Of a DNA stretch of 64,000 bases, positions 25,176 to 52,100 are shown one piece after another (the first letter of the stretch is position 1; each line of letters starts with the position of its first letter). A program made the translations under genes and the position numbers. The notes under the pieces are model-generated. The model was given only the letters and a program-made list of their open reading frames with translations, searched no databases and was not told the origin of the DNA. The stretch comes from Yuukianura sp. NJ FZ-2021. Taxonomy: Eukaryota. Where the stretch lies: the NCBI GenBank assembly GCA_046563655.1, contig CM102285.1, forward strand, positions 14,446,001 through 14,510,000, in the 5' to 3' direction.

Positions 25176-28100
25176 TCATTGATCCTCTTCGTCACTCTCC
25201 CCGTGACCATACATGTCTGCCAGCTTTTGAAACCGGGGACCCCAACCATTCAAGTAGTCAAAGTCTTGCTCGTTGTCATCCGTCCCAGCTAAAACAGAGT
25301 AATTGACAGTTAATTTAAACCAATCGCTGGAATTTTCCTAACTCGGCTCCTGATTGGTCAATTTTTGGCTAACCTGAGGCCAGAGAAGACAACGACCCGG
25401 CAGTACTTCCTCCTCCTTCGTAAGCGTAGTTTCGTAGGTCGTCAAACGGCGGCGCGTTCGGATCGTGATCGGCTCTTCGTTTGTGATCGTCAATGAAGAC
25501 GCTGAAATTCGGCTCTCCGCCCATCATCACTTCTGGTGCTGGCATCTTCATCATGTCTAAAAAATATTTATTTTAATTAAAAGTAATTTAATTTGTGTAA
25601 AAACAATTAAAAGCATGCAAATATTAATTAAAAGCATAACTACTGAATCACATACTTCAACCACCTACAAAAAACTATTCAATTTCATAGATTTATAAAA
25701 ATATTTTTCTTACATGGCATTTTGGTGACCATCATCTCATGCCCTGGCGCTCCGATTGGAATTTGCAGAGGTGTAATGTCAAAGGCCGTCACTAAAAACA
25801 CGCAGTAAATCGATTAATTAATATAAATTAATTAATTATAATATCTTATTTAAATCCACTCACTGTCGTCCTCTCCGCCCCCTTCATCGTCATAGTTGAT
25901 TATGTTTTCTCGTACGTCGTCGTCAGGACCTGGGTACTTAATTTGAGCCTCCCTTCGACGATTGTATACCACAAACACCAAAACAAGGACTAAAGGCCAA
26001 ACACATCCAAAATTTAACAACTTTCCAAAAATTCATTCAAAATTTTGAACTTCCGTTCAAATTCAACTTCTCCGCTAACCGCCATTCTCCAGAAGCATCA
26101 AGCCCAACCACTTTGTACGATCATGCGCCATAGTTAATCTAACTTACTGAGCATCAGGAGAATGCAAACAACTAGAGCAATTATGAAGTCAACGGAAGTC
26201 GTGATGATTCCACTCGGAAGTACTGCCAGTTCACAGTTTTTGCCCGAGTATTCATAAGGACATTGACATCGATACATTTCCCGCGTCTCCAAGTTGACAC
26301 ATCTTCCTCCATTCAAGCACGGCTTCTCTTCTGCGCATTCGTCAATATCCTTGCAGTCAATTCCATAAACGATGCGTGACCCCGGCGGACACCTAAAAGC
26401 GCCCAATCAAGCAAAACTTAAACAGAAGCCGACTTCCGAAGATTTAAAAAAAATGATTTCCATTTTGATTAACATCGAGCGCGCCAAAATTCAAAATTTA
26501 TGTCATGCAGGTCATTCAAACTAGTTAACGACGACCTAGGGTTCAACGAAAGCACAACGACAGGTCAAGGGTCAATTTCTAAGGGTCAAGAGGTCAGCGG
26601 GGGGTAAGGGAAGCTTTTGATCTACAAACTTTAAGCCCAAAAACGTCGAAAAAGCCGAAAATTCAAAATTTGGCGGTTAGTTACGGTACAAGTCTCCTTT
26701 GAAAACCAAATGAGGGAGCCTCATTGGTCAAAACTGAGAGAGCCAATTAGAGCTGGGACTGGATTGAGCTTTGCACAATCCACTTTCAAGCGGAAAATTT
26801 TTTAACATTCAACTCGTTGTTAGTTGAAGACAATACGGTTAAGGCATGGATTAAGGATAAACATTGACGCCGAACAGTGTTGCCACTTCGGCCATCTTTT
26901 GTGGCTACAATAGGTGGCAACGCACTGGCTACGCACGTAATCCCATGTTCATTTGTATTTCAAAGAGGTGATATTTTTTTAACTAAATTCTATGAATAAG
27001 TGGCAGATCTGCCGAAATCTGAATTAAAATAATTTTCTCCGGATCCATTTTGTTATTTGGAAAATCCATTCCACTCCGTTCCATTCCACTCCATTTTGAA
27101 CAATAAGTACTTCGTTCCATTCATAGTTCTGATAATAGCTCCAATCCATTTATATATGGAGTGGATAAATCCAGTCCCAGCTCAATCGGATTCCTTTTGT
27201 CAGTTTCTGGGAGGAAACTTACTGAGAATCATAAGTAGACAGCATAAAATGGCTGCCAACGCCCCCATACTCAGAGTCAGAATCTGACCCTCTTGGTACA
27301 GTTCACAGTTCTGGCCCCAGTAGCCTAAAAATGGAGGTCACGAGGTCAGTGAACTTTGGAAAGTCAAGAGGTCAAGGTCAAAGGTGACCAAGGGTACCTG
27401 GCGGACAGTCGCAGTAGTAGCGAATACTTGGATCTCGATTTGAACAAATGCCGCCATTTAAGCAGGGGCTGTCCAAACATTCGTTCTTGTCTTCGCATCC
27501 CTTGTCGTCTTTCGTCGCCTGCAGACCCTCACCACAACTTCACACACCCAAGTTAAAGTTAAATTTTTAAAAATTAGCGCACTTTTTCAAAATTTTGACC
27601 CCCCAAGCACTTGTCATTTGTTAGAAAACACAGTTAGACCCAAACAGTGTCATGCAAAGGTCAGAGGTCAAGGTCATACAACCAATTCTCGAAATCATAC
27701 ATCATCTGGCGGCATCCGGAGAACTGAGCAAAAAAAAATGAATCTCAGGAACCATACTTTTGATTTTATTCATCCGGCGGTAATTTGAAACTTAACATTG
27801 TGATTTCTTTTTCTATTCAAACTTTTTCTTTTCTGTTTTGTTTTGAATTTTTAAAACAAATGTTTGAATCCAACTACGTGTTTTCTAACAAATGACTTTC
27901 TCCGCACTTTCAGAACAGTTTTTAGAAAAGAGACAGAGAAAGGCTTTATGTTGAAGAAGGGACTTACGCGCACTCGTACTCGTTCCACAAGTCTGTGCAG
28001 TTGAAGGGCTCAGGACATCGGACATTGTCACAAGGGCGGTTGGAAGGGCACCCGGGACTTAGGTTTTTGGCCATCGTCGCTTGACCCCACTGCGTCCCGT

Positions 28101-31100
28101 TCAAACTCGGCGGAAGCGGCAACTGCTTTCCCTCCAGCCGAATATCGTCCAAACAGCCTACAATTTCACAATTCCAAGCATTTCAGCAAAAATTTCAAGA
28201 TTTCAAATATTTCAGACATATGTACCAGGATTTCAAACATTTCAGCAAAAAAAGAATTTCAGCCAAACTTTTTAAAAAACTGAAATCATTTCTTACTCTT
28301 CTGATAATCGGCATAAACTTCAAAGGATCGGTGTCCAGTGTACTCTGCCTTTCCTCCTAAGATTTTCAACCAAACGATTTTTCAAAAAGTAATTCAAAAA
28401 CTACTTTTTCTTCCTCTTTTTTTAAGTACCTGCGTAAACTCCCTCCTGCTTGTCAACTTGCATCCATTGGTGACCTTCGAACCGAAAAGTTTCGTTGTAC
28501 TTCTTGCCCTCTCCTCCGTCCAGCTCCAGAATTGCAATGGATCCAAATCGTGATACTTTGGCAGTATGCCATTGTCCATCATCCACTGGGACATAGGTCA
28601 ACCACAGCATCTTTTCCTCGGTTCTCAAACTGTTCAAGTTGAATCTGAACCGCAACCGACTATCCTTGATCTGAAATTCAAAAATTCATTTTCAAAATTC
28701 TATTGAAAATGTTCAAAATTTTGTTGAAAATGTTCAAACATCTAAAGTTTTTACCTCCAGAATTCCATACTCCCGATTATGTTGATCGCTGATTCTGAAA
28801 AGTTCTCCTTGGACTTCTCTTGTTCTAAACCTAAGTTGAATCAGCGTCACGAATTTATCCGGTTCAAACGACAAAGCATACTTGACATAACTTTGAGCTT
28901 TGAACGTCGTTGCCACGGTGGGGGTGGCACATGACGGACCCATCCAGCCTGGTAAAGGATTTAAAAAAATATATTATAATAATATAAATTAAATATAATA
29001 TAAAATATATGAAATATTACCTGGTTTGCACTCGCATTTCGGTTCGTTGAAACTGCCGACACAGTAGCCATGGTCAGAGCATCGCGCAGTGATGTCATTG
29101 CCCAAACACTGCTCTTCTATTGGTTGACATCCTGGAAGACTCTTGTGTCTCGAGTGTCCTGGATTGGCCAAATCATATAACTTGCTATTATGAACCAAAT
29201 TCCGAATGCAGCCATCAAAATGCTTCTGGGTTGGAACGTATCGCCATCGGAACAGTCCAGGATCAAATGAATCTGCATGAATTCCACCAACTTGGAGCGG
29301 AGTGTTGACGTTCAGGTATTCGTTGAATGGCGGAATTTGACCTTCGCCTAAACAGTGACTGCTGTCGAACACTGTTGGACTTCCGTCGTCAGCTTCGTTG
29401 ATCCTCGCAGTTCGACAGAGATCAATTACCATTTGGACAGTCTGAAACAAAATTTCAGAAAAAAAAGTTTCAAAATTCAAAAACTTTCAAAAAATTGACC
29501 TCAACTGACCTCTGTGTTCCAGAAAATGTCAATTCGATGCCACTCTCCATTGCTCAGCGTTCCATTCGGTCTGATCCGGAGCTCCAGCGTTCCAGAACCA
29601 AAATCCAGCAGAAGTCGAGGCTCGCCTTTGTCCAGTTCCAGCGAAATGAAATCCGATAAAATGATTTCTTCCGGTTCAGGAGCCACTAGAGGTCCATTGT
29701 ACAACAGCAGCGCTGAAAAATTTCCAAAATTAAGGTCAAGGCCAGATTTCAAAATTTCAACTTTTTTGACAATTTTGACTCACATTCATCCTTTTTCGTA
29801 ATAAATTCCAAACTGAGATGAGACTCTTCACACATCTCCAGAGCGGGGTACCACGCCCAGTCATTGTTCCGGAAAGTTCTGCTGCTAATTTGGCATCTCG
29901 GACCGTCAAAACTTCGTGGACATGCACAAACCGGCCCAGTTTTGGTTTCGATACATCTTCCGCCATTGTAACACTCGTATTTCTTGCACGACTCTTTTTC
30001 TATGTCTGAAAAGTTACGAGCTCCACAAGTACATTCCGCCAAAGTTTCAATCCGAACTCCAACGACTGCTGTTTTATTTGCATTGACAGTGTATGGTAAC
30101 TTGCTAATTTCAACAGCATTTGTACAGGAGCCTTCACAGGCTTTGTTTTCGTACAGACATTCGTCAATCCCCACCATCGTTATGTTGATTCCAACATCAC
30201 GTTCAATCTAAACCAAATTCAAAATTATACAATCCGTGCGTCTTGCCTAACTTTTCAAAAAGTTAAAAAAATGTCCAAGTTTTTTTCCTCACTTGTTCTC
30301 TGTGGAGTAAAACAATGCCATTGAGACGCACAGGTTTGAAGTACGGAGATCCATGAGCAGCAAATCGCACGTCTGTGATTGGCGGACGTTGCTGTTTGAG
30401 CTGAACACTGAAAATGTCTACGTTCGCTTCATCCGTGCCCAGAATTTGAGCCAGTTTGGCTCGAAGAAGGTCTGATTTACTTTTGATGATACTTTGACTC
30501 TGAAAGAAATCAAAATTTTAAAACTTCAAAATCAAAAAAGTTCAAGTTAAATTTTTCGTTTTTTCCAACTTACCCGGTAATCCCAAATCCGAATGAAATC
30601 TTCATCGGAAATTCCGGCGATTCGGATAGACCCAGAATTGACTACCGCTTCATGTGAAATTTCTTTTACAAAAACAGACACGTTGGCTGGAACGTTAAGC
30701 TGAGTGTGGTAGCGGTCAAAGACTTCGAATTCCAGTTCATACCTTTTTTCAAAATTTTGAACAAAACAAAACACACTTTATCATTCACAGTTCATTGAAC
30801 TCTTACGCCAAAACGGTAATCTATTGAAGTCAAATGGTGTGAACCGATTGACCTCGATTGACCTCTGGCACTTACATTCCAGGCGGCGTTTCCTGTTTCA
30901 TTGTGATGATTCCAGAATCTTCATCCAAAGTAAATCTTGGATGCGGATGCTCGCGCCCTTTCCAGTAAAACTTTTTGTCTCCAAGATCCCAATCGTCCAG
31001 ATCATACACATACACTCTCCCAATTTCCGTGTCAGGGGTCACCCCTTCCCCTACATACTTGTACACCAAGATATCTTTTGACCCTGGCATCATCTTGTTG

Positions 31101-34100
31101 TCATTGATGTCTGAAATCAATAAAATATATAAATAAATGAATTTATAATATATAATAATTGTGTGTCCAACCTCCAATGATGACTGTGAGTGTAGAAGTG
31201 CCGGACATGGCTGGAGATCCAGAATCTTTGATGACAATGGGCACCAAAAATTCCTTTCTTTGCTCACGATCGAACATTCTGAGAGAAGAGACGATTGCCA
31301 TTCCATCTCCATTGGCACCCTCTGCAGAAAAAAGAGAAAAGTTGAAAAGAATTTTTGAAAATGAAAAGGATTTTTGAAAGTGAAAAGAATTTTTACTTTC
31401 TTTCAACTTTCTTTTGAGATGAATAGAAATTTCAATAGATTTCCTATTGTTGGAGATAGAACTTACTCGGATCATGTTCAACTTTGAAAGAGGCTTTGAT
31501 CTCATCAGCCGCATTTGGATCCATCCGGAATGTGAACGGTGGACCATTGCCTAAAATTCATAATTTTACACATTAGGCTGACATTTAACTAACCTAACTT
31601 TAAAAACTAACTTAAAACTTAACATAAACTTAAACTTACCTTTAGAACGATCATCGTCATCAGTTGCCAAAACTTCAACGACTTTGCGCGGTGACTGATG
31701 TTCAGGAAGTACTGGACGATAGTCTTTGAGAAACGTTGGAGCGTTGTCGTTGACTAGAAACATTAACATAAATTTCAAAAATAATTCAAAATTTCGAAAG
31801 TTAAAAATTTGAAATTTTAATTCTGTTCAAAATCTTACTGTCTGTTGTTAGAATTCGCATAGAAGGACGAAGAATCATAAAAAAAAGTCAAAACATTATC
31901 AAATCTGCACATGACCTTTGTGACATTTTGAGTAAAGTGTAAAATTGACCTTGGACAAGAATGGAGAGTGTGGCTGTAGCCGTTTTGGGCGGAACTCCAT
32001 CGTCAATCGCCAGGATTTTTACCTAAAACAATTTTTTGATTCTCAGAAGACGTTTTCAAAATTTTGAAATAGAAAAATGATTTTTGTGTCCTCACCTGAT
32101 GTCTCGGTGTCTCTTCCCTGTCCAGCGTTCGTTGAATTGTGACAGTTCCGTCTTGACTGATTGAAAACTGGCGTTTCCTATCTGATGACCTATCGATGGC
32201 ATAAGAAACTTTGCTTTTCCCACCTTGATCAGGGTCAGTGGCCTTGAAAGTCTCTAAACTCTTTCCAACTTCTGCATTTTCATACACCGATACTTCAATG
32301 TTCGGGCGTTCAAACTAAACAAAATCAAAAAGCAATTTCAAGAAACGCTCTTTTTTTTTAAAAAAAAAACAAGGTCTTTTGGTAAGATCACTTACGCTTG
32401 GCTTGTTATCGTTGACTGAAAAAAGAAAAAACAAAGATTACAAGTTATTCTCAATCTCAACTGTAGTTAGAAGTTACAAATCAAAATTCAACTAAAAAGG
32501 TAACTTACTGTCTGTTGTTCATCATTCACGGATCAACAAGAACCAGGAAAAATAGAACAAATATTTTAATTTATGCACAAATAATATAAAATATTGCGTA
32601 TAATATTACATTTTATATTAATATCTCACCTCGAAGAGCCACTTTGACCCAGGCATAACTCACATGGTACCTGTAACGCAAAAAACAAAAATATAGCCCT
32701 AACTCCAAAAATTCTTAAAATCAGTAAACCAAAAAAAAAAATATGAAATTCCGAATTCAAGGGCGAAATCAAAAGTGCTGGAAAAGGAAACTAATTTCCA
32801 AAAGTAAAACTAAAACTGACTGCTGTTCAAAAATTCAAAATTTTAAAAGGGTCATTTAAATAAACCAAATCGAAGTTACTTCAGGCGTTTAAAATTAACT
32901 GATACAGAAAGACACAGAAATTTAATAAGCAGATTTTCAGAAATATCCCTCGGTTGTGTAGTCAGAGTAAAAGTAAAAGTAAAATCAAGAGTAAAAGTAA
33001 AAGTAAAATCAAGAGTAAAAGTAAAAGTAAAATCAAGAGTAAAAGTAAAAGTAAAATCAAGAGTAGAGTAAACGTTAAAAGTGCCAAATGACCAAAAAAG
33101 TGTAAGAATAAATGAAATTTTTCAAAATTTCTAAATTCTATTTCTCCTTACTTGTCATTGTCGTTGTCATCTCCCTTGTCGTTGACTTGTATTCTGAATC
33201 TGAATCCTTGACTCTGGAGTGGATCTTCGTAGTCCAGTGGCTGGACAATCTTGAGTGATCCTGTTCCATCGTTGTTTCTGACCATTGTGAACTTGTCTGC
33301 ACCATAACCACTGTTTTCTAAAACTTTGTAATGAAACTTGTTCGTTTCATCTTCATCATGGACAGTCACTGTCAGAATCGGCGTGTCCGGAAGAGACGAT
33401 CCATCCGTCTCGTCCACTTCCGTAAACCATTCGTCTTTCGTGAAATGCGGCGGCATGTCATTGACTAAAAACGACAATATCATTATCAAAAATCACAAAA
33501 ATTTACTCAAAATTCAAAACCTAAAACTGAAAATATGTTTCTTACTGTCTGTTGATGTAGAAGAGAAGCACCATTTGAAAAAGAAACACAAAAATTAGCA
33601 AAACTGCGTAGAATCAAGTACAGTTTTCATAATCCGAATTATTTAGATTTACCTTTTACTCGAATCGAGGCCGTTCCAGTCCCTGCAAAATTTCAAAATT
33701 CGAAAATTCAGATCATTTTTTCAAAAACTTTTTTTTATGGAAACTGACCCTTAAGTCCCCCTCCATCCATTGCGACAACTTGTATAGAGTAGTCCGGCGT
33801 CTTTTCTCTGTCCAAGCAGCACACTGCCGTCTTGATGACTCCCGTGTCCGACTCAATTTCGAAAATAGGTCTTCCCTGATCTTCGTCAATGACGTTCTTC
33901 TCAATGGAGTACATGAGTTTAGCATTCGTTCCTTCGTTGGGGTCATCGTAGTCAACCGCTGTCATCGTCATCACCACCATTCCAGAAGTTCCATTCTCAG
34001 TCACATTGCCAACATAAACTCCTTGCGGAAACAGCGGAGCATTGTCGTTAACTAAAATTATACACAGCAATTAATCACAAAATCACAAGAAAAATATCTC

Positions 34101-37100
34101 CGATTCAAAAATTCACAAAAATTAAAATCTTACTGTCTGTATTGACGATCAGGACAAATCAACGGAATCCAAAACACAGTTTCGTAGTGGAAATTTTCAA
34201 AAAATACAGAGTTAGTCAAATTAATATGCAAAATGTCTAGGTCAAAGGTCATTGAAATTATAGCATTACCTTTCAGATTGACTTGAACATCACTGTATCC
34301 AACCAAACCTTCGCCGCCTTCATCTTGTGCAAATACCGTAAATCTCCACTGGGCTCTTCCGTTCGGCTGATCTCTATCCAGCGGCTGTTATAAAAATCAA
34401 AATTTTAGTTTTCAAGTTTCAAATTTTAAAAAATTTTAGTTTCCCAGTTTAAAAATTTTGAAAATTGAAAGCAGACCTTGAGCACATAGATTTCTCCCGT
34501 GGTTCTGTTGATGTCAAACTTGCTGTTGGCGGGATTGTCCGAATCAATGCCCTGTCCAGTGAGGAAGTACACAATGTTCTGCGGTCTGTCCTTGTCTCCA
34601 TCACTGGCCGTCACCTTTTCAAATTTTGCCAAAATTCAATTCAAAATTCACAATTTTACTCCAGAATTCCAAAAAATGAAGCGAGGGAATGTTGGATTTA
34701 AAAAATCTTGCGCCTGTGCAGACCACGGTTGTGCTACCTTTAGCAGTTTGAGTGGCAGTATGGCGTCATATTCCTCCTCAATTTGGGAAGTGTACATGGA
34801 CTGACTAAAAACTGGCGGCAAATCGTTCTTGTCATTGATTCGGATGACGACCGTAGTTTCATTTTCATTGAGACTGTCAGAAGCCACGAGAGCCAATTCA
34901 TACTGCTCCAGCCATCAACAGGTCAAAGGTCACAGGGGTCAAACATAAACGAAAACATAAACAAAACAAAAAACAAACAAAACATAAGTAAACAAAAACA
35001 ATAATCAAAAGCCATGCTAAACAAAACGACACCTAAAAGTATAAACCGCCACACAAACAAAACGCATATCACATTTTTAAGTCACAAAAATTCATTCCAA
35101 AAAGTTTAACTTAACATCTGGCCGAAAGCAAACCAAAAAATTTTTCAAATTCAAATTTTATTTTTTATATTCAAAAATTTAGGTTTTTGAGTCTTCGTAA
35201 TCATGTGAGAACTCATATTCTGCCGACTGAAGCTTTCGATATTATTCGATTTTTTTTTGTATGGAAGTTTAGTCATAAAATGCGAACTGTTTTCTCCCGC
35301 CACGTCGTTTTCCATTAACTTTGCACTTTTTTGAAACTTTTTCGAAAAAAGAGCTTTTTTACTCAAGTTTTTTTCATGAAGTCCTTAATTTAATTGAGTC
35401 TTTTCCTTAGTAAAGTGCCAAGAACAAATTCAAAGGGTCCCGATTTACAACGTAACCAAAGGGAACTTAAGCCATAACCATTTAAACACGGTTTTGCACA
35501 GTTCAGCAAAAAAAAAGAGTGTCTTGGCCAATAAACTGGCAAGATTTCATTGGATCCGAAAACCAGTAAGCATTGACATGACTAACGGCAATTGTCCAAT
35601 TGGCCCCATTTTCAACTTCGCACACATCGCTGTTTGAACAGAACGTTCCTCTTTTTTTAAAAAACAAATCGTTCCTAAGGGGGAGGAAAAGTTCCCCCCG
35701 AAATTCGGGGGCACTTTGGGCTGCCAAATTCCTGTTTTTCGGCCATTAGACACGTATTACCCTCCCGCCATTTTTTAAATTACAAAAAATTCTAAACTTT
35801 CAAAAAAAAAGCATCCAACACACATTACACAACACATTTTAAACAAAAAGTTTAAACATTATTGCACATACCAAGCTGTTTTAGAACATGACTCAAAACT
35901 TTTTTGAACAAAAACTTATGTTTTAAAAACAGGACACATTTTTAGAAAATTTTTACAAAACAAAAAGCAACAAACCAAAAAACGAGGTTAGGTTTTTGTA
36001 AAGTGTTCAAATTGTTTTACTGGAACTGCAAAACGAAGTTATTTTGGAAAAACCACAACACTTGGTCCTAATTGCACATTTTACAGGGAGTAACTAAATT
36101 CCTTCTGAAACAAAGAAGTCATTGCGGGAGGTCGAGACGCAAGATTCAAAGGAAAAGGATCAGAGGGAAAGTGCAGAAAAAGTAGAGAAAGTTAACCTGC
36201 AAAACTCGTTTTGGAAGATTGCGATCATCTTCTTCCGTAATTTGTGTTTCGTAAGTAGGACGATCAAACCATGGTTGGTTATCATTTTGGTCTTTAATTT
36301 TAATTAATTACAAATTATTCAAATTCAAAATTTCCAATTTTCAAAATTTCAGATTTTCCAACTTTCATCACCTTTAACATTGATTACCACTGTAGTCGAA
36401 TTCTCATTTTTGTTATCCGAAGCAGACAGACGGAGCTCATACTAAATTACCAAAGTTGAAAATTTTTCAAAATTTCAATTTTTTCAAAATTTCACACCAT
36501 TCTCACACTAAAGTTCATTGACCTTTCACTCAAAAAAGTTGACCTTTGACCTTACCCGTTTTCTCGTTTCATAATCCAGAGGTCCTGCGACATAAATGGC
36601 TCCCGTCATGTTCTTTACAGCAAAAGCGCCTCCAGTGTTTCCCTTTGTAATTTCGTACCGAATTCTTGAAGCTGAAAAAGAAATCAAAATTTTAGAATCT
36701 CAAATCAGCTAAAAACTTTTTCAAAAAAGTCAACTTTATGGCAAATTTCCAATTTTTCTTTCAAAAAGTTACAACTTTTGGAAAGTTTATAAACGGGAAA
36801 CCAAGAGCGTATCGCTCTGTCTCCAGAAACCATCATAAAATAAATTTCAAATTCAGCCAGTATTTTATTAATCCAAAGAAAAGGTTAGAAATCTTGTTTA
36901 ATAAATCAACTTTTTCAAAAAAACAACGTCAGACAATTTTTACGAAGACATAAAAGTGAAGTTTTAAAAAAAGTGAAAGTTGGATTTCACTTTAGTTAAC
37001 ACAAAAAAAAAATTGAAGAAAAAATTGCAACAAAGAAGGAGCGATGAAGCATCACTCAAAATCCCAATTTCCTTTGTTCTCTTTCGGTCGTTCATAAAAA

Positions 37101-40100
37101 CGTGCTTTAATATTTACCGGAAGAAAGTTCCATTAACCTCCTTCTCTCTTGAGTCTTTTGAATAAAAATTCAATTGAGAACTTTCTCTTTTCTTTCCCGC
37201 TCTTTGTCTCTTACCTCAAATGGAAATTGTTTATGGAAAAAAGGGGGCGGGGAAGTGAAAATGAAATTCATCTTGCCCAAATTGAACCTCCTGCTTTTCT
37301 ACTCAAACTCCCTTCTCAAAGTCCGTCATAGACTCTCAGGTTTTACGCAAAAACACATGAGCTCTTCTGAAATTTCAACAGAAACTCTCTAATTTTCGGA
37401 AATTCTACGAGAAACTCCTTACTTTTCAGACATTCTTGCAGGAGGAACTCTCTACTTTTCAGAAATTCTAGGATACCTCCTACTTTACTTTTCAGAAAGT
37501 CTACTTAAAAATCCCGACTTTTCAGAAATTTTTGAAGAAAGGTTCCATACTTTTCAGACATTCCTGGTAAAACTCCTTACTTTTCAGACATTTCTGCTAA
37601 AAACTCCTTACTTTTCAGAAATTGTATAATAACCCCCTACTTTTCCAAATTCTAGCATAAACTCGATCCTTTCTTTTCAGACATTCTACCAGAAACTCTG
37701 TACTCTTCAGAAATTCTAGCAGAAATTCTATAATTTCAGTAATTCAGTAATTTCAGAAATTACGGCCTTCTGATTTCTCGAAAAATTTTGCTGGGAATAA
37801 CTTCCACCGATTTTTTCCCTCACAATATGCTGCATCTCAAAAATTTTTAGTTTGTTAGATTATGGATCGCTGAAGCTATAGTTAGATCGGAGGGGTTTCT
37901 GAAATTTTTGCAAAACTCCCATTTTTTATCGCAAGTTTCTGATTTTCCAAAAATTTCAGCCGACATTTTCTTCATCTTCTCAAATCCTGGGAGATCTCTT
38001 TCATTGTTTGGCCAATCAAATAACATCTCTCTTTTTCCATTCAACTTTCTCCAACGACTAAAACAAATAAAAAAGAAAAATGAAAAACGAGAAAATAATC
38101 ATGATGCCAAAAATCTTTTTGTTCAAGACTTGAAGTGATCCAGCCAAAAGTTGACTGGCTCCACTCCATTTTCATAATCTCCCGGAAAAATTTAAATTTC
38201 AAAAGAGAATGTCAAAGCGAAAACCAATTTTCGTCAAATCCGCTTTCACTTTTGCTTTCTCTTTGATTTTTCGTCTTCTACCCTCAAAATCAAAACCCAT
38301 CCCCTTTAATTAACTTTAAATAACAAACATTTTAAAAAATCAATAATTCGTAAATTTAACTTTAAAAAGCCCCGCCATTTTCAAAATTCCATGACTTCCA
38401 TTGTAATAAATCAACCAAAAATGGGAACAAAGACTAAAATTATGTCCCCATTTGTCAAAAAAGTGTTAAACTTGAGACAAAAGTGTTGCCGGAAGTGCTT
38501 TTGAGAAAATTTCGCGAAACACTACGATAGTTTTTAGCACACCAAAGGTGACGACAACTTTCCACTTTAGAAAATGGGCACGAAAAGGACAAACTTTTTG
38601 AAAATGGCGCCTGGGACGAAGAGCATCTGGACCTTGTTTGTTTCAGCGATTTGCTGGAAGCGATGATAGGAGATCCATGTTTCATGAAAATCCGAAAAAC
38701 AACTTTCTTTTGTTTTCCTTTTCTCCAGAAACTGTCCAGAAGCTCCCCTGCCTTTTCTTCCACTTGAGAACACACTTACTTCCAGTTTATCCAGAAAACA
38801 AGGAAGTCCGAATTTCATTTCCTCCGAAAAACCAAAAAGGAAAGTAATACCCGGGAACAACCAATTTCCGGATCCACTACATTGCGTCCTGTCTTTCCGC
38901 AAAAAGGTAACAAAAGAGAAACACAGAGATTTTGGAAGGATTCAAAATTTCCATAAAATATCTCTTCACGAGGATTTCACTCCGCAGGGGGACTGCTAAA
39001 AATATGTTCAAAACGTTAGGTTATGTTATCCTAACATAGCATAACCTCAACCCTAACCTAATCCCGGTCTCACCACTTTATCATAACCAAACCCCAAGAA
39101 AATTCCAAAAAATGCTTACAAAACTTAGCTTTTCTCTGCCTAAACCATACTCAAATTCTTCTCCGACTGAGAAAAAACGAAGGGAGCAACTACACTAGTG
39201 AAGGGAGTAACTATGCCAGTGGAGGGAGTAACTATGCTAGAAGATAATTTAACTGTGCGAGTAGAGGGAGTAACTATGCTAGTGGCGGGAGAAACTATAC
39301 CAGCGGAGGGAGTAACTAAAACGGGGAGTAACTATACCACCGGAGGGAGTAACTATTCCACTGGAGAGAGTAACTATGCTAGAAGATAATGTAACTGTAC
39401 CAGTGGAGGGAGTAACTATGCTAGTGGTGGGAGTAACAATTCATTCGAGTTAGTTGGTCAGAGAGACAAAGGGAAAGTGGAGCGGAAGCATGAAATATGG
39501 CCTAATCTTCACTAAATTCTCTTCCTAAACTGTGGCAAATGGGAATCTAAAATTCCTCCAACCAAAAACTTTTAGTTTCTCTCTCTTTCTGACACCGATT
39601 TTCGGAAAAGTTTCCTTTTAGCAGCGTTTCCTCCTAATTATCACTCCCTTCAGAAAGTCCATTAGGGGACATGGGACATAGGAAGTGGGTCAAAGGTTAA
39701 ACTTTTCCGATTAAATCTAAAACACTTACATTCGTCCAAGTCTTTAGCTGTCACGGTGAGTACGGTGTGTTGAATGTCTTCATTTTCGTCAACTTCGGCC
39801 TCGTACAAAGCTTTGTCAAAGTACCTTCAATATCAAAAGTAGTCAAAATTAGTTTAGTTTTGTTTGTGTTGTTTCAAAAATAGTTTAAAAATTCGAATTT
39901 CGAAAAATTATGGCCAAATAAATAATAAATTACAATGAATTTTCAAAATTGAAGTTATACTTACGGAGGGTTGTCGTTCTTGTCAGCGATTCCAATTCGA
40001 ATGAACTTGGTTACTAAAAATTTCGAAAAAGACTCAAATTAGCTCCCCTTTTTAGAATTCTCTTTTCAAAAACTAAAAGTGAACTCCTATAAGTTGTTGT

Positions 40101-43100: not shown

Positions 43101-46100
43101 AGCGTCAAAGCGCAAGTGCAAAGTTAATTAATTGTGCAAGGTGTGAACTCAATTAGTTAATTAATTAACTAAGGTGCAAAAACGGTAAGATAAACGCTGC
43201 TTCATCGTCCGATTTTAGTAAACCGAGTTCGGCGCGAACAGTGCATGGCGACATTTTTTAAAAAGTCAGGAAGAGGAAGAAAAGTGCTGAAGTTTGAGAG
43301 TAGTTGAGGTGTAAAATGAGTTAGTTAATTAGTTAAAAGTTGATTAATCGTCAGAGCAGAGTGTGAAGCAGGGAGTGTGGACAGACCTTGCTTTAACCGA
43401 AGTGACGACCGTGCCCACCGTCACATTTTCCCTGATGAAGATTGGTCCATACGTGGTGGACTCCCACTTTGGTGGCTTGTTGTTCCGATCCACCACGTCC
43501 AGTTCTACATCCACAATTGCAAACAGAGGCTCCACCCCTTTGTCAGATGCTTGTACTTGCAGTCGGTACTTGTCTCGCTAAAGGACCAGTTCATAACCAT
43601 GAAATTCACACTTTCAAAAATATCAACTTTTCAAAAATTTCAAAAATCAAGTTTTTTCAAAAATTTCCCAAAAATCTACTGTCAAGATACTACGAAAAAC
43701 CCAAAAATTCTTTAACACGGTTTTTCGCTCTTGATGGAACAAAATTCACAAAGTCTACGGCATTCTATTGCAAGCGCTTACATCCACAATTTACAATATT
43801 GTTTCAAAAATCCACTTTTTCAAAAACAAAAAAGAAAAAATCGAGTGAATGAGTGATTCAAAAATCTACGTTTTCAAAAAAAATTGAGTGATTCAACAAT
43901 CGACCTACTCTACAAAAATTCAAAAAATACCACGGAACCTACTAATCACAAAATGACAAATTATAAAAATTACATGTTCATGCGGCATCCAGATTTATCA
44001 AAAACAAAATATAAAAAAAAAAGTTTCAGAATTGAAAAATCGTTGTTAAAAATCAAACCAACTCACGCATGCAAAAAGTTGTTCAAAATTATAAAACACA
44101 AAAAAAAAATCAAATCTGGCCAATGGTCTCTGGGTTTTAAAATTCAAATTCGCATGCGTAACGGTCCAATAAGTTATAGTTAGTAGTAATACGTCCAACT
44201 TCTGGTTTGTCATTTTGGAGTGAACAATGTGGATATGAAACACCATATTTTTCAAAATTTTTATGAAATTATGAAAAGCAACATAAAACAGTCTCGCGCT
44301 GCAATTTTTCCAAAATTTCCCACTTTTCAGTCAAAATCTTCACAAATTTTCTCCCGCCAGCACCAAATTCATCGCCGAAACCGAAACCAAGCTCCATTTT
44401 TTTCCGCTTGAAGCTAATTCGCAATTTTTCGTTGTTTTTCAGTTTTTCAAACCGGTACGTGCACCAAGTTCAAAAAAGTATTGAATTACACACTATTTGG
44501 AGTAGAATTCATGTGACCATGTACCATTACCGATTCCAGGAAGTTGGAAACTTCCTTTAGCTGAAACTTAATACCTTCAAAGTGACTTTTACCTTACTCA
44601 CCTTACTATTTTTTTGTGAAAATGACTTTTGGACCATAGAGTATAACTTACATCGAGCGGTTTCTTGAGAATAATCCAACCAGATTCTGGTTGAATCTCA
44701 AAGTAATCCAAGTCTGCATGATTCTGTGGAGCAGTCAGAGTGTAAATGATGGCTCCATTGTTGTCAGCATCTTCGTCTGATGCTGATACTCGCAGTATAT
44801 TCGTTCCAACACTCGTGTCCTGTTTCACGTTCTCAACATATTTCTGTCCACAAAAAAAAATCAAAAATTTTGGTTACAAATTTTGAAAAAGTAAGTTTAA
44901 AAAATTTTAATTTCAAAATTTTCGTCAGAATCCGACAGCCGACACGGCAACTTCAGCAGAGCACAGCGTCTCGAGGAGTTAAAATTCCGAAAAACTTTAC
45001 CTGGCGGTCAAATAGTGGTCTGAAATACAAAAAAAAAACAGATTTCACATTTTCATCCAAAATCAAAATTTCGAAATCTCAAATTCAAAGAATTCTCCAA
45101 ATTCGAAACACTTTTTGAACTTACGGATTGTCATTGACGTCTTCCAGTTCAACTGTGAAGGAACAAACTCCTTCCAGGGCCGGCTCGCCGTGATCAGTGG
45201 CCTTCACTGTCACTGAAACGAATTTTCCGTCATCTCCCTCCCGATCAAAAACCTAATAACAAAAATTCAATCAACATTTAAAAAATTTTTCAAAATTTTG
45301 CTTCCTAGTTTTTATAAAAATTTTACTTTGTTCGTAATGACTTCTCCAGTTTCTTGATCCACACTGAACTTGGCTCCTTTTTGATTCGGTTGTTGCACAA
45401 TCGAGTACTTGACTTGTCCATTCACTCCTTTATCTTCATCAGTAGCATGGACCTGGAATTTGTAATTTTGAAAATCAAAATTTCGAAAACTTTTTTGAAC
45501 TTTTTAGAAAAATCTCTGACCTTGATAACTGGCGTTCCGTTCGGGGCTCCCTCCATGACTTTTGGGCTGTACGACGAACAATCCTTGAACTTCGGCTTGT
45601 TATCGTTCACATCACTGTTCAAAATATTACATTATAGAGCCTATTTTTTAAAATTTTGTATTCAAAATTTTCAAAATTCAAAATTTTACGTAATGAACAC
45701 GACGACGACAGCCGTCGACGTGTGAATCGTCTTCGGTCCACCTTCGCAACACGATCCGTCGTCAACTGCTGTCACATTTAGCTCGTACTTGTCTCGATCC
45801 AAGTCAATTGCGCCTGCGTGGAGCCGAATCACACCCGTGTAGTCCTCAATCACAAACTGCCCGGACTTGGTTCCTCCTCCCACAAACCCGAATCTACAAA
45901 CATTCAAAATTTCAAAATTTTGAAATTCAAAATTTCATAAAAATCCAAAATTTATGAATTATTTCTGAAATCGTACCGAACATTGTCTCCGTCCTTGTCT
46001 GAAGCTACGACGGTCGTCACAAGTGTATCCGGACCCGCATTTTCGTCAACATTCGGAGTATAAACTTGTTGCGAAAACTTCGGCTCTTCATCGTTCTTAT

Positions 46101-49100
46101 TTTTTGTGTAAATCCGCACCGTGGCTGAACCAGTTTGTGGTGGATCGCCTGCCAATTTCAAAAAAATCCATTTCAACAAAAAAATCAACATCAATCACCA
46201 AAATTTCAAAATTCCAATTTCAAACTCGACAAACCACAAATGAACATCATCTTACACTCATCCAAAAAATAAGTTTTTCTTTACAGAAAACCAACCAGAA
46301 AATAAACAGGTTGGATATTTCGTCGAATAGGCTCAAATTCTTCAAAAATTTGACAACAGATTCAGAAATTTTCAGTTCGTTTGTGGTTTTTTGAATTTCT
46401 GGCTCTAGTTTTCCAAATTGTCTGACCTTTGTCACGGGCAGTGACCACAAATTCGTAGTAGGCATTGTTGTTGTCAGCATCCAGTTGCTTGTTGTTCTTG
46501 ATGACCCCATTAGAGTCAATTTTGAAGTGGTCATCACTCACAGTATACTCTATCTCAGCATTTGAGCCTGAGTCAGCATCAGTCGCCTTCACTTTCAAAA
46601 TACTCGTTTCCAGTGGCAGGTCTTCGTCAATGTTATGGGCTTGGTAGTCCGGCAACTCAAACTTCGGAACGTTGTCGTTCACATCCGTCACTCGAATTGT
46701 TAACTAAACAAAAAATACATAAATAAATTAAGAAATAATTAAATAAATAAATTAAAATTATTTAAATACTTTAATATGGACGCTTCAAATCAATGAACTA
46801 CACTAACACTACTACTTAAACTTAAATAAATCATACCTCAACAGAAGTCGAAAAGCCTCCAGAATCTTCAGTGGCAGTAACCTACAAAATTATACAAAAA
46901 TTGCAAATTACTCATGTAAAAGCAACTTCTAATGTCACTTTTGAATTTAAATCATTAGGTTATGTTATAAATTAGGTTAGTTAGGTTGTAGAATAGGTTA
47001 GTTAGGCTATGTTTTACCATAAGTTGAAAGACATGTGGTTGACGTAGATCTTCAAAGTCCAGTTCCTTGGCCAACTTGACGATGCCCGTCGTAGGGGCAA
47101 TGTTAAAAGTGCCTTGACCTTGCTGTCCACTTGCTTTGAGCGTATAGCGAATTTCTCTATCAGCAAACGACTTTGCCTTGACCGAAATGATGCTAAAACA
47201 CAAACAAAACTCAAAATTAATTAAACTTTCCTCACCCTTCTGCTTTTAATTAAAAGCAAACACAAATGTTCATCACATTTTCCGAAATTTTGGAAAACGC
47301 TGTCATAACATAGTTTTCAAAATCCAAAAAAAAACCTAGGCATAACTCCTAACTATAAGTTTCCTATCGAATTTGAACTCACTCTTTTCATTCTTTTTTG
47401 AAATTTTTTACCATTAAAACTTTTTCGAAAAACTTGTTTTCATTTTGTTTTTTTATGAAAAGTGAACTGTGCAGTCTCTAATTAATCACTTTCCACCTCC
47501 CTGTCATCATCTGCTCAGAGGCTATGCACCTTCACTTTTTTACTCAACTATTATTTTCAAATTAAAAACAAAATCACTTCCTTAATGAATTTTTACTCAT
47601 CAATTTTCAAAAAATCTCATCAGTTTTGAAAAAAAAAGAAAGGGAAAAAGCTTCCAAAATCCCAAAAAAGTCACCCTGTTTCTTCTAGTTTTTTTCCACT
47701 TTCATAAAAAATGTGCTGACAGTTTTCAGTTTCAGTAAAAACAAAATCCTTCTCAATTGCTTATTTATACAAGACCATTTTTCTTTAACTTTTTCTAAAA
47801 AGCGCTTCTTAAAATTTTGTGTTTAAAAAAACGCTGCTCATGCATATTCCTACAGTTTCCGTCTGCCTCTGTTGTTTCGCTTAAAAAAGTTAAAAGTTTA
47901 TGAAAAAAGCAGAGCGTAAAAGTGGAAACTAAAATAAAAGAAACTTCGCCATAAAAACTACTGTGCGTTAAAACTCAAATACTTTTCATTATTTTGAAAC
48001 TAAAAAAAACTAAAAACTTTTGTGAAAAAAACTAAAACTTGTGAAGTCATTTCCAGTAACAGTTCAAGAAACTGCGGAAAAGCGGTCATTCTCCTTCTAA
48101 AAAAGCCCTTTCCAAACAGTTTTCCCAAAAATTGTCAATTTCGACACTTTTAGTCCAAAAAAGTAAAAGTAAAAGTGCTTGGAGCTGCAACCGGAATCGA
48201 AAAGCCCCACAAAAAGCGTTGTGTCCCACTGGGTACAATAACCATAAACTTCTTTCCCACCAAAAAACGACCAGTCCAGATCGACTCTTAACACTAAAAT
48301 GACACAAGTCGTTTCTCAGCATCACACTCAAAAAACGGAGACACTAAAAATCGGTCACGTGCTTATCCCAGAATCGGTTTTCTTACTCTGAGTCCTTCTT
48401 CCGATTTTCTGGAATTTCAGCTTCATATTTCTGCATGTAAAACTGTGGTGGTCGTTTCCCACCCACAATGGACAGCCTCTCTTCCTGTGTTGACTGAAAT
48501 CTTCTATCATCCAATCGTCCATTTTGATCTTCCGCTTTTACATACAACACATACTCCATGTCCAACTGGAACGGGTCATTGGCTCTTGTCTTCACGACCC
48601 CTGACCTCTCGTCAACCTCGAACCGACCACCAGCTACAAACAAAATATAAACCGTTTCATGTGTGAACATAGCCCATCATGGATCAAAATTTCATAAACC
48701 CGTCATTAGGGGTGTGAAAGTTCCGTTCCGTTTCTCGATAGAAACAGAAATGGAACGGAACAGAGTGTGCGGAAACAGAAACGGAACAGAAAGTTTGAGC
48801 TTGGAACGAAACGGAACTGGAACAAATCCCTTACGAATGCATCTTAGCAGTCTATTTCCAAACTTTGCAAAGTTAGCAGTTGAATAGCTAACAATATTCA
48901 TAAGCATAAGGAAAATGTGATAAAAACTAAATTTTGTCGTTTGAAAAATGCCGTTTCTGATATTTTTACCGCTAAAAATTACGGAACACGAAGAAAATTC
49001 TTCCGTTCTGTTCCAGTTCTTTCTGATCTTGGAATAGTAACGAAACGGAACCGGGTTTTCTGTTACAAAAACTTATCCGACACAGAAACGGAACGGAACT

Positions 49101-52100
49101 GGAACAGAGGCTGTTCCGTTTCTTGGAACTGGAACCTTCCCACTATTACCCGTCATGGGTCAGCCAGCACTCAGGTTGACCCGTCATGGGTCAAATATGT
49201 TTCAGAATGAGTTATGGGTCAACTTACTCCTGTCCCTGACAATGAAGTAGTGGATGCTGTGATCAGTATCTGGATCTCTCGCTTGGAGTGTGAAGACGGG
49301 CGTGTTGGGCAGGGCATTCAATTGAACAACAGCCTGCATCGGAATTGGACGATTGATGAAGTATGGTGGCTCATCGTTCACATCTAAAGTCAAAACACAA
49401 TTAATTCCATTATTCCATTCCTATTATTCTCAATTAATAAGTTATTTTATATTAATATATTATCTCACCTTTCACGTAAATTATCACTCGCTGATTGTCC
49501 GTATCTGCAACAATGAAAACAACAATTTAGCAATAATTCAAAAGTAAAAATTTATTTAAAAATTATGTATTTTCCCACCCCACCCCCTCTTTTCTTCTCC
49601 TAATTGAAACTTTCCATAAAAAACGCCCCACCCTCAATCATCTTTCCAAAAATTCTTTCAATTCATTCCAAAAATCAATTTTCTCCAATTTGAATTTTCT
49701 TTTGAAAAAGTACAGTTTCCAATTTCACAAAAGTTAATTTTTCAAAAAAGAAAAGAAAAGCAACTTACATTTGACTCCTGTGACGAATCGAGATTTCCCA
49801 AGAGAAACACATGAAAGGAACAAGGAAAAAGAAGAAAGTTACCAAAACAGTTTTTCCTGTGTTTTTCAAATTCAAAACAGTTTTTGAGCTCAACAAATTT
49901 TGTAGACAGCACAGAGAAGCAAGACGCAAAAACAACAATTTGTTTGCTAATCATTACAATTCGCAGGAACAAAAACAATCATGCAACAAAGTCAACCCAA
50001 ATTCAAAATGTGGCATAAACATAAAATTTCATAAAATCAAAAAGTTCCCCAAAAAAACTTCTTTTTTTTTGAAAAGTCCCCCTCCCCTTCCCTTTGGTGA
50101 ACTTGACATTAATCAATACCCAGAAAGCCCATCCACCATTAATTCCCTTCCCAAAAACCCTTAAGCTTCTCCTGTCAGTCCCTGAATAATTGACGCCCTT
50201 AAGTCAATGTCTCAGTCACTGCCAAAGTCCGCCCTCCCTACCTTACCCCTCCCTCCATATTTCCGATTTCAGATTTATGAAGATCCCAAAATTTCAGATT
50301 TCAGATTTATGAATATTCCAAAATTTCAGATTTCATATTTATGAAGATTCCAAAATTACAGTTAATCAATTCCTATAATGTCAGAGTTATCCATTGTCCA
50401 AAATTTCACATTTTTCGAATTCATAAAATTTCAGAACTGACGTCAGATTCTACCAACCGTTCCCACAACTCGGAATTTAAAATCTCTCAGCGTACAGAAT
50501 TTCATATTCAAATCCTTTAAAATTCGAAAATCCGATGTTCACCATCATCACACCTGTTTTCGCCCAACTTCAGAATTCATCAAAATTTCGGAAAAGTTAA
50601 AAACGTACTAAAAAGTAAAATTAAAATTGTCTTGCAAAAAAAATCTGTATTAGTCATAATTTATATAAACCAAGCATTCTTCTCCAAAGTTATGATTACA
50701 CAGGGGGGAAAAGAGAAAAAAGAAAGTCATGAGCACCGAAGTTACAGAGCGGGAAAAAAAATCGAAGTTAGAGGTGGTGGTGGTCGTAGTTGCTAATGGG
50801 AGCATCCAACTTTCACTTTTGGACTTTCTCCTCCCCCATCCCCCTACAAAGCATAACCTACTCTATACTAAGAATCCCCCTTCCACAACTTCTCACAACC
50901 AAGCACCTCTTATCGATTTCCCTTCACCAAAACAAGGAAGAGCCTCACTTTCTCCAAACACAAAAGGCACCGCTGTTCCCCTCATGAACTCAACAAAGTG
51001 CATTCCCCTTAAGCCGCTTTCAGGTTCCAGAAGAGTCCAAAGTCCCATCGACCCACCAAAAACTCTCCCCTCGGTGGGGCACAGCCCCACCACCACAAAA
51101 TTAATCAACAAAACATGAGCCATATGATCATCTTCCCACCAACAGCATCCAAACCACATGAAATGATTAACCACTGCAGCAGTAGCAGTTGGTGCTTAAT
51201 TCAGCTAACCCTAACTTAATCCTAATCCTAACCTAATCTTAAGCCTAACCCGCTGACCCCTCACCCCAAAAATTCAATATTCGCGTTTTTGCAACCTAAA
51301 ACATTCAATTTCTAAACAAAACTTTTTTATTGCATGGTCAAGAACAATCAATTTCTGAACCAAAACGCTCCATTTTTGTGGCACTGTGCCAAAAATCCAT
51401 ACACAACAAATCAAAAATCTCAAAATAGAAAATTTTACGTGTGTTTTCACATTTTAGCTCCAACCATTTTCTGTAATCCCACACTAAATCTTTTCAGGCT
51501 CAACTTTTCAAAAAAAGCGGGTAACCACCCTGGTAGCGGCAACTGGCAAGTCAATTTTGAAAAATTCTTTTGAAAAGGATTCTGTTCAAACAGAAGTTCA
51601 AACAAAAATCGACCCTCATCCCAAAGTCACCTAAGCCAACAACTGCAACAATCTAAACAAAAAGAATCGATTTTTTGGTAGCCATTTGGGGTTCGGATTT
51701 CCTGTTCTCTGTTCACAAATTCAACAATGGAGGCCTAATTCTTGTGCCAGATCCAAAAAGAACCAACTTAGCACGCGATCGATCCATATAAAATTTCAAC
51801 CCCACTTCAATTCAAGTTTCCCGCGTTAATCCACATACGACGTCATCATCAACCGAGGGGGGGGGGGTTTAGGCTGGATCTCCCCCTCTCGAAAATACAT
51901 TGTCGAAATGGTAAAATCAAAATTTCTTCGTTCTTTCATACCCCCCTCCCCCATAAATTCGAGTTTTTACTCCCCCCCCCCACACACCCCCCATTTGGTG
52001 ATGACATAAAATATGGACAGACCATCCCCTGCTGTCGCTATGCTAAAACCAGAAGACAGGTGACAAGAAACAACCGTCTGAGCCTAACAAATTACCCGGA

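Follow-up and report, generated by a model that had tools for sequence, protein, structure and literature searches.

Four 3-nucleotide exons, probably constitutive, at consecutive linkers of an arthropod N-cadherin gene

The stretch of DNA considered here, which we call the window, comprises 64,000 nucleotides (nt) of contig CM102285.1 of Yuukianura sp. NJ FZ-2021 (GCA_046563655.1). It contains an N-cadherin gene (CadN, a type III classical cadherin) in which four consecutive linkers between cadherin domains are each interrupted by two introns that appear to enclose an exon of only 3 nt, ACA. The gene extends within the window from approximately 25170 to 63312 on the minus strand, as delimited by tblastn with four homologues, which are collinear along the window, and by Pfam searches of exon translations. 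PF00028 scores above its cut-off in all four ectodomain exon translations tested, and the cytoplasmic domain PF01049 lies at 25372-25512 (-) with E = 9.2e-15 and 54.9 bits (cut-off 24); the C-terminal halves of P0001 and P0009 are also matched collinearly in the window by tblastn. The named top matches are neural-cadherins, those of arthropods being the best (83-90% identity over a 100-residue exon), and the LamG and EGF entries of Pfam are the precomputed ones of these matched proteins. The N-terminal exon reaches at most 45% identity to named proteins of 771-2200 amino acids, and a WD40 exon nearby has 3 weak matches, all of them unnamed. Three stretches match the same homologue residues twice in tblastn (43583-43383/42720-42523, 36672-36173/34929-34738 and 27539-27203/26364-26149), as expected for the alternative exon pairs of arthropod N-cadherin, which is described as having three pairs of duplicated, mutually exclusive exons (PMC2655722). 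About 14 residues of P0003 (679-692) are unmatched between two exons at 46703-47015, where a further small exon may lie. The Pfam domains, the neural-cadherin matches and the collinear tblastn alignments uphold the identification as arthropod N-cadherin that had been made in an earlier sequence-only reading of this DNA.

The part of the gene that carries the linkers in question was modelled as 18 exons from 34905 to 30876 (-). All 18 exons are intact and all 17 introns are GT-AG, with lengths of 123, 92, 133, 82, 66, 104, 81, 481, 118, 93, 81, 73, 108, 85, 89, 145 and 61 nt. The motif ACAG-ACA-GTAAG is found once in each of four consecutive linker introns, on the strand of the gene. The features that make up the four sites, and the fifth linker that follows them, are these:

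34270..34384 (-): exon ending CTGAAAG, whose last G is base 1 of the linker-1 aspartate (Asp) codon (sequence reading)
34137..34269 (-): intron a1, 133 nt, gtaatg...acag (gene model)
34134..34136 (-): microexon 1 (ACA), Asp bases 2-3 and base 1 of isoleucine (Ile) (homologues VNLK-DI-NDNAP)
34052..34133 (-): intron b1, 82 nt, gtaaga...ttttag (position used alone in the relative L001)
33749..34051 (-): cadherin-domain exon, 303 nt, starting TT AAC GAC (gene model, Pfam)
33653..33682 (-): 30-nt exon ending GTAAAAG, adjoining the intron of microexon 2 (gene model and homologues)
33549..33652 (-): intron a2, 104 nt (position used alone in L001)
33546..33548 (-): microexon 2 (ACA) (motif, frame, homologues)
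33465..33545 (-): intron b2, 81 nt (gene model)
33152..33464 (-): 313-nt exon starting TC AAT GAC ATG (gene model, Pfam)
32630..32670 (-): 41-nt exon ending CTTCGAG (gene model)
32512..32629 (-): intron a3, 118 nt (gene model)
32509..32511 (-): microexon 3 (ACA) (motif, frame, homologues)
32416..32508 (-): intron b3, 93 nt (gene model)
32396..32415 (-): 20-nt exon TC AAC GAT AAC AAG CCA AGC (the following intron is common to L001)
31950..32022 (-): 73-nt exon ending GTCCAAG (gene model)
31842..31949 (-): intron a4, 108 nt (gene model)
31839..31841 (-): microexon 4 (ACA) (motif, frame, homologues)
31754..31838 (-): intron b4, 85 nt (position used alone in L001)
31640..31753 (-): 114-nt exon starting TC AAC GAC AAC (gene model)
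30876..31110 (-): fifth-linker exon, starting ACATCAATGAC, with an upstream-type intron of 61 nt at 31111-31171 and without a microexon

At each of the four linkers the Asp-Ile codons are laid out as G/AC A/TY, split by two introns (slashes) that stand 3 nt apart, so that an internal 3-nt exon bounded by AG and GT is present at all four sites. The introns upstream of microexons 1 to 4 measure 133, 104, 118 and 108 nt, and those downstream 82, 81, 93 and 85 nt. Microexon 3 and the 20-nt exon behind it place three introns within 24 nt of coding sequence at linker 3. With the four microexons included, the model gives an open frame of 671 amino acids with the linkers KDINDN, KDINDM, RDINDN and QDINDN; with all four skipped, the frame is preserved. 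The exon of the fifth linker begins with ACATCAAT at 31110 and is preceded by the first, upstream-type intron only. The sequence-only reading was accurate on all points checked: the position and minus strand of all four elements, flanking introns of 81-133 nt, an Asp and an Ile on inclusion (DINDN, or DINDM at the second site), a frame that survives skipping, and the start of the fifth-linker exon. Elsewhere in the window gene, the upstream-type intron stands alone at three further linkers (the fifth, with its exon start at 31110, and two others), and at yet another an intron in phase 2 immediately precedes the Asp codon. Other linkers, at 49384-49470, 36292-36373 and 45630-45700, carry one intron each, either in the Asp codon (G/AT, G/AC) or in phase 2 and one base ahead of it, and a 3-nt exon is found at none of them.

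The recurrence of the element is not a matter of chance. The 12-mer ACAGACAGTAAG has exactly 4 matches in the 64 kb when both strands are searched and 1 mismatch is allowed, against a mean of 0.14 in shuffled sequence, where 0 of 100 shuffles reach 4. Over both strands, 128 kb in all, there are 5 copies of the heptamer AGACAGT, and 4 of these lie inside the four composite introns, which total about 816 nt. We exclude chance on the strength of these two counts. A search of the window with YAGACAGTRAG returns the same 4 matches.

That the elements are read as exons follows from what they restore to the protein. In cadherin structures, DxNDN contributes a Ca2+ ligand through its first Asp. At linker 1, D-x stands immediately before N-D in 114 of 118 aligned homologues, the other 4 rows being truncated or starting inside the exon, and a short K-V-N-D is seen in none of the 118. 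Asp is present in 110/110 homologues at linker 2 and in every one of the 40 commonest patterns at linkers 3 to 5. The x-V-N-D form is absent from all informative homologues, which have linkers of the K/R/Q-D-I-N-D type. Judged by these alignments and by the frame, inclusion is needed for the conserved protein sequence, and since the window gene has no other visible route to encode the invariant Asp, we read the ACA elements as exons that complete the conserved DxND motif, as had been claimed from the sequence alone. Inclusion is probably constitutive, because its product would be the canonical Ca2+-binding D-x-N-D linker. Two predicted proteins of Daphnia galeata (P0075, P0096) have NLKDN-NDNAPF with an odd upstream ENCL at linker 1, which may be a gene-model problem.

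Homologous loci of related species were collected by an exon-alignment scan of metagenome contigs, which gave 58 loci. The closest relative, L001, is a 5.8-kb genomic contig with 96% protein identity to the window over 663 residues. In one exon the two differ at 3, 0 and 46 per 100 first, second and third codon positions, and by this measure purifying selection on the window gene is strong. In a rough FastTree built from projected sequences and limited to rows with 300 or more aligned residues, which excludes L033 and shorter rows, the window groups with L001, L011, L014/L035 and L022 in a clade outside insects and Daphnia, a placement that might suggest a non-decapod crustacean. Intron positions at the four linkers, counted in nt from the G of the Asp codon, are as follows, where W is the window, A is L001 (read by eye at linker 3), B is L014 together with L035 (their ends overlap identically, by eye) and C is L011:

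Linker 1: W 1 + 4; A 4; B 17; C 1
Linker 2: W 1 + 4; A 1; B 15; C 15
Linker 3: W 1 + 4 + 24; A 24; B 17; C 9
Linker 4: W 1 + 4; A 4; B 14; C 10

In total, the four linkers have 15 different intron positions no more than 24 nt from the Asp codon in these four species, which share 90-96% protein identity with the window. At linkers 1 and 4, L001 has a single intron (GACA/gt...ag/TA) at the position of the window's downstream intron; at linker 2 its single intron (AAAG/gt...ag/ATATC) is at the position of the upstream one; and at linker 3 no intron falls within D-I-N-D. Once spliced, the L001 junctions at linkers 1, 2 and 4 encode an intact D-I-N-D. This single use of each position in L001 indicates that both are functional independently, and the window has both at once. 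The upstream-type intron of linker 1 is also found in L011, and in L022 an intron splits the second Asp codon of linker 2 (AATG/AC, by eye). Outside the clade, the D-x-N-D codons are uninterrupted in 24, 23, 19, 14 and 15 loci at linkers 1 to 5, respectively; some of these loci are transcript-like contigs and uninformative on introns, and many are clearly genomic with introns elsewhere. L011, L014/L035 and many outgroup loci keep older introns near residues 165 and 301 of the modelled part, both of which the window and L001 lack. To judge from these comparisons, intron positions around the linkers turn over very fast, and the microexon arrangement, recent and specific to this lineage, is probably a side effect of exceptionally rapid gain or relocation of introns at the linker codons of the clade's cadherins rather than a conserved means of regulation. 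An apparent GC-AG intron (GACCAAAGG/gcaaga) lies just after the fifth linker of L001, at about 2700-2840, where the window has no intron.

The splice signals of the four units are more alike than the introns that carry them. All four microexons have GTAAG as their downstream donor; elsewhere in the modelled region, donors such as gtagca, gtctgc, gtcagt, gtcaat and gttgga are found among the remaining 13. Beyond the ACAG-ACA-GTAAG core, no alignable similarity is found among the four upstream and four downstream introns. An identical core in otherwise unlike introns points to constraint on the splice signals rather than to recent copying, and on this comparison recent copying or gene conversion between the four units is unlikely. 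An introner or gene-conversion origin was considered and rejected, as the introns align at the splice core only. A repeat search of the gene for a shared intron family returned only loose low-complexity motifs of the AATTTTGAAA type, and no target-site duplication beyond AG is seen at these introns. Read on the gene strand, many introns between 25000 and 64000 (e.g. 31773-31818, 36315-36357 and 45645-45691) contain a loose motif resembling AATTTTGAAATTTTGA, which may be an intron signal typical of the species or no more than low complexity. Two tandem arrays also lie in introns of the gene, one at 32952-33083 (12-nt register, 24-nt unit) inside the sole long intron (481 nt) of the modelled region and the other at 39161-39440 (21-nt period).

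The sequence ACA is itself largely dictated by coding, as it supplies the end of GAC and then the A of ATH. The uniform and strong GTAAG probably offsets the poor exonic ACA half of the donor. Introns as short as 81-133 nt would presumably be recognised by intron definition, and in an exon of 3 nt the pairing of U1 at ACA/GTAAG would take up the whole exon and overlap recognition of the 3' splice site at ACAG. Most likely the two introns would be removed sequentially, with ACA fused first to one neighbouring exon in a manner resembling re-splicing, to leave a canonical Ca2+-binding linker as the splice product.

Could the four elements be something other than constitutive exons? One possibility is that they are not exons at all, either because the large exons splice directly to x-V-N-D or because the gene copy is decaying. 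Direct splicing would keep the frame, but four exact AG-ACA-GTAAG elements in four consecutive introns are not chance, the Asp that ACA restores is invariant elsewhere, the distribution of differences over codon positions bespeaks strong purifying selection and every modelled exon is intact, so that we regard this as very improbable. The sequence-only reading had favoured a regulated on/off switch of linker stiffness instead. In this scenario, tissue-dependent skipping, possibly controlled by an activator of the SRRM/eMIC type, would remove the first Asp of D-x-N-D and leave linkers that are poor in Ca2+ and more flexible, with as many as 16 combinations. The preserved frame at all four sites is compatible with such a switch, as are the acceptors before the microexons, which are atypical in lacking a T-rich tract. 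In addition, 283 of 411 internal coding microexons are alternative in a Drosophila survey (PMC8042270), and DN-cadherin has fixed Ca2+-free linkers (Jin et al. 2012, cited in PMC8325961), so the family tolerates them. However, the Asp is invariant at the four linkers in all informative homologues, many multi-isoform RefSeq entries included, and L001, L014/L035 and L011 hard-wire D-I in ordinary exons and cannot skip D-I alone; any switch could therefore be only as old as the lineage of the window species. The TGC triplets noted earlier are indeed at -22 (microexon 2) and -18 (microexon 4), but a TGC no more than 40 nt from the acceptor is present in 2 of the 4 microexon introns and 5 of the 13 other modelled introns, which is no enrichment, and the upstream UGC of SRRM/eMIC targets is thus not above background. 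Folds of about 210-240 nt around the four units reveal no stable RNA structure (z = 1.63, 0.57, -0.25 and 0.39 against shuffled controls). We therefore consider a regulated switch unlikely, and the invariant Asp together with the TGC counts speaks against the stiffness switch as it was proposed.

Several points nevertheless weigh against constitutive inclusion. The acceptors before the microexons (caatacag, atcaacag, aacaacag and aacaacag) are A/C-rich, whereas most of the gene's other acceptors have a T-rich tract; their recognition could consequently be inefficient, and some skipping may occur. Skipping is in frame, so a skipped mRNA need not meet nonsense-mediated decay. Constitutive use is argued from protein conservation alone, and no transcript-derived protein near-identical to the window gene was found, the best being at 90% and full-length CadN of about 3000 amino acids falling outside the length ranges searched. 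Taking both sides together, the sequence comparisons make it very likely that the microexons are real, and the combined statement that they are real and constitutive appears likely as well, with somewhat less assurance.

How the paired introns came about is less clear-cut. The earlier proposal that the microexons arise from two introns 3 nt apart is supported. Its further detail, that the second intron was inserted 3 nt downstream of the first, holds for only part of the sites, as it agrees with the lone upstream intron of L001 at linker 2 but not with linkers 1 and 4, where L001 has the downstream intron only and the order would be reversed. We lean towards the window species having gained second introns rather than L001 having lost them, because loss through a cDNA copy, on the usual model, should take both introns around a 3-nt exon. 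It is conceivable, though we give it clearly less than an even chance, that two introns, and with them the microexons, were in place before the window species and L001 diverged and that L001 lost one of each pair. The linker-1 upstream-type intron, common to the window and the more distant L011 and not to L001, would agree with such an ancestor, and loss of older introns, namely the two near residues 165 and 301, is demonstrable in both the window species and L001. Against it stand the expected joint removal of both introns by a cDNA copy, the single introns of L001 at three linkers and the upstream-type introns without a downstream partner at the window's three further linkers. A more general scenario, which we put forward only tentatively, is that introns in this clade are gained or relocated again and again at the Asp-Ile-Asn-Asp codons of the N-cadherin linkers, which would be hot spots, and that the 3-nt microexons represent the two-intron intermediate of intron sliding, in which a new intron would arise beside an old one and one of the pair would later be lost. 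Intron sliding is debated (PMC2891723, PMC7730772), and this scenario, if true, would provide natural evidence for short-range intron relocation, a long-debated process.

Whatever their origin, the microexons have practical consequences. All four exons would be missed by standard gene finders and RNA aligners, and the predicted cadherin would be short of four Ca2+-ligand aspartates. Other intron-rich genomes can be scanned for the same signature, an intronic AG-NNN-GT at a place where the protein lacks a conserved residue. Because the four 3-nt exons are natural, identical and flanked by short introns, they make a compact test case for how the spliceosome deals with sites 3 nt apart. The relatives, with one, the other, both or neither intron, offer a rare chance to trace gain, loss and sliding at single-nucleotide resolution. 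Skipping, if it occurred, would be a new way of tuning cadherin rigidity; no finding here points there.

Among known systems, 3-nt cadherin exons were the subject of no title or abstract opening among the listed papers on N-cadherin microexons in Drosophila or on 3-nt exons; the supplementary tables of PMC8042270, outside this scope, could list CadN exons of Drosophila. The sequence-only reading had mentioned very short microexons in Drosophila CadN, and a microexon does exist in insect N-cadherin, but it is the 12-nt micro-exon 7a', tied to alternative exon 7a (PMC2655722); it belongs to the same gene family and differs from the exons described here in size and in place within the gene, and is not a 3-nt linker exon. 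The fixed Ca2+-free linkers of DN-cadherin, which bend and are located at EC2-EC3 and partly at EC7-EC8 (Jin et al. 2012, cited in PMC8325961), resemble what a skipped form would look like, but they are genome-encoded and at other linkers, whereas the four linkers of the window are canonical D-x-N-D in all homologues. Lineages that bear introners and gain introns rapidly, copepods among them (PMC9860276), likewise show many lineage-specific intron positions among close relatives; the window introns differ from theirs in having no shared family sequence.

Single coding exons of 3 nt are known from mouse Ncam and Drosophila TnT (cited in PMC8042270), from Drosophila homothorax (hth micro-Ex8; PMC7392893) and from human MAP4K5 (a three-base exon; PMC8632122). 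As in the window gene, these are internal exons between AG and GT that affect one residue and keep the frame. As described in these sources, they are single exons and mostly alternatively spliced, whereas here four identical ACA exons, probably constitutive, occupy equivalent positions of four consecutive domains in one gene, and each splits two codons instead of adding one. What is new is this run of four identical 3-nt exons at equivalent positions of repeated domains, their youth and the hypervariable intron positions around them. The nearest analogue is the set of constitutive microexons of 1-15 nt that lie inside conserved domains in plants (PMC8831610), which are also tiny, needed for a conserved protein sequence and usually missed by annotation. 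According to the same source, plant microexons have conserved, strong GTRAGT donors, and in some species their bases have been subsumed into a neighbouring exon or the introns have been lost. They are ancient and kept across land plants, whereas the microexons of the window are absent even from L001, a relative with 96% identity.

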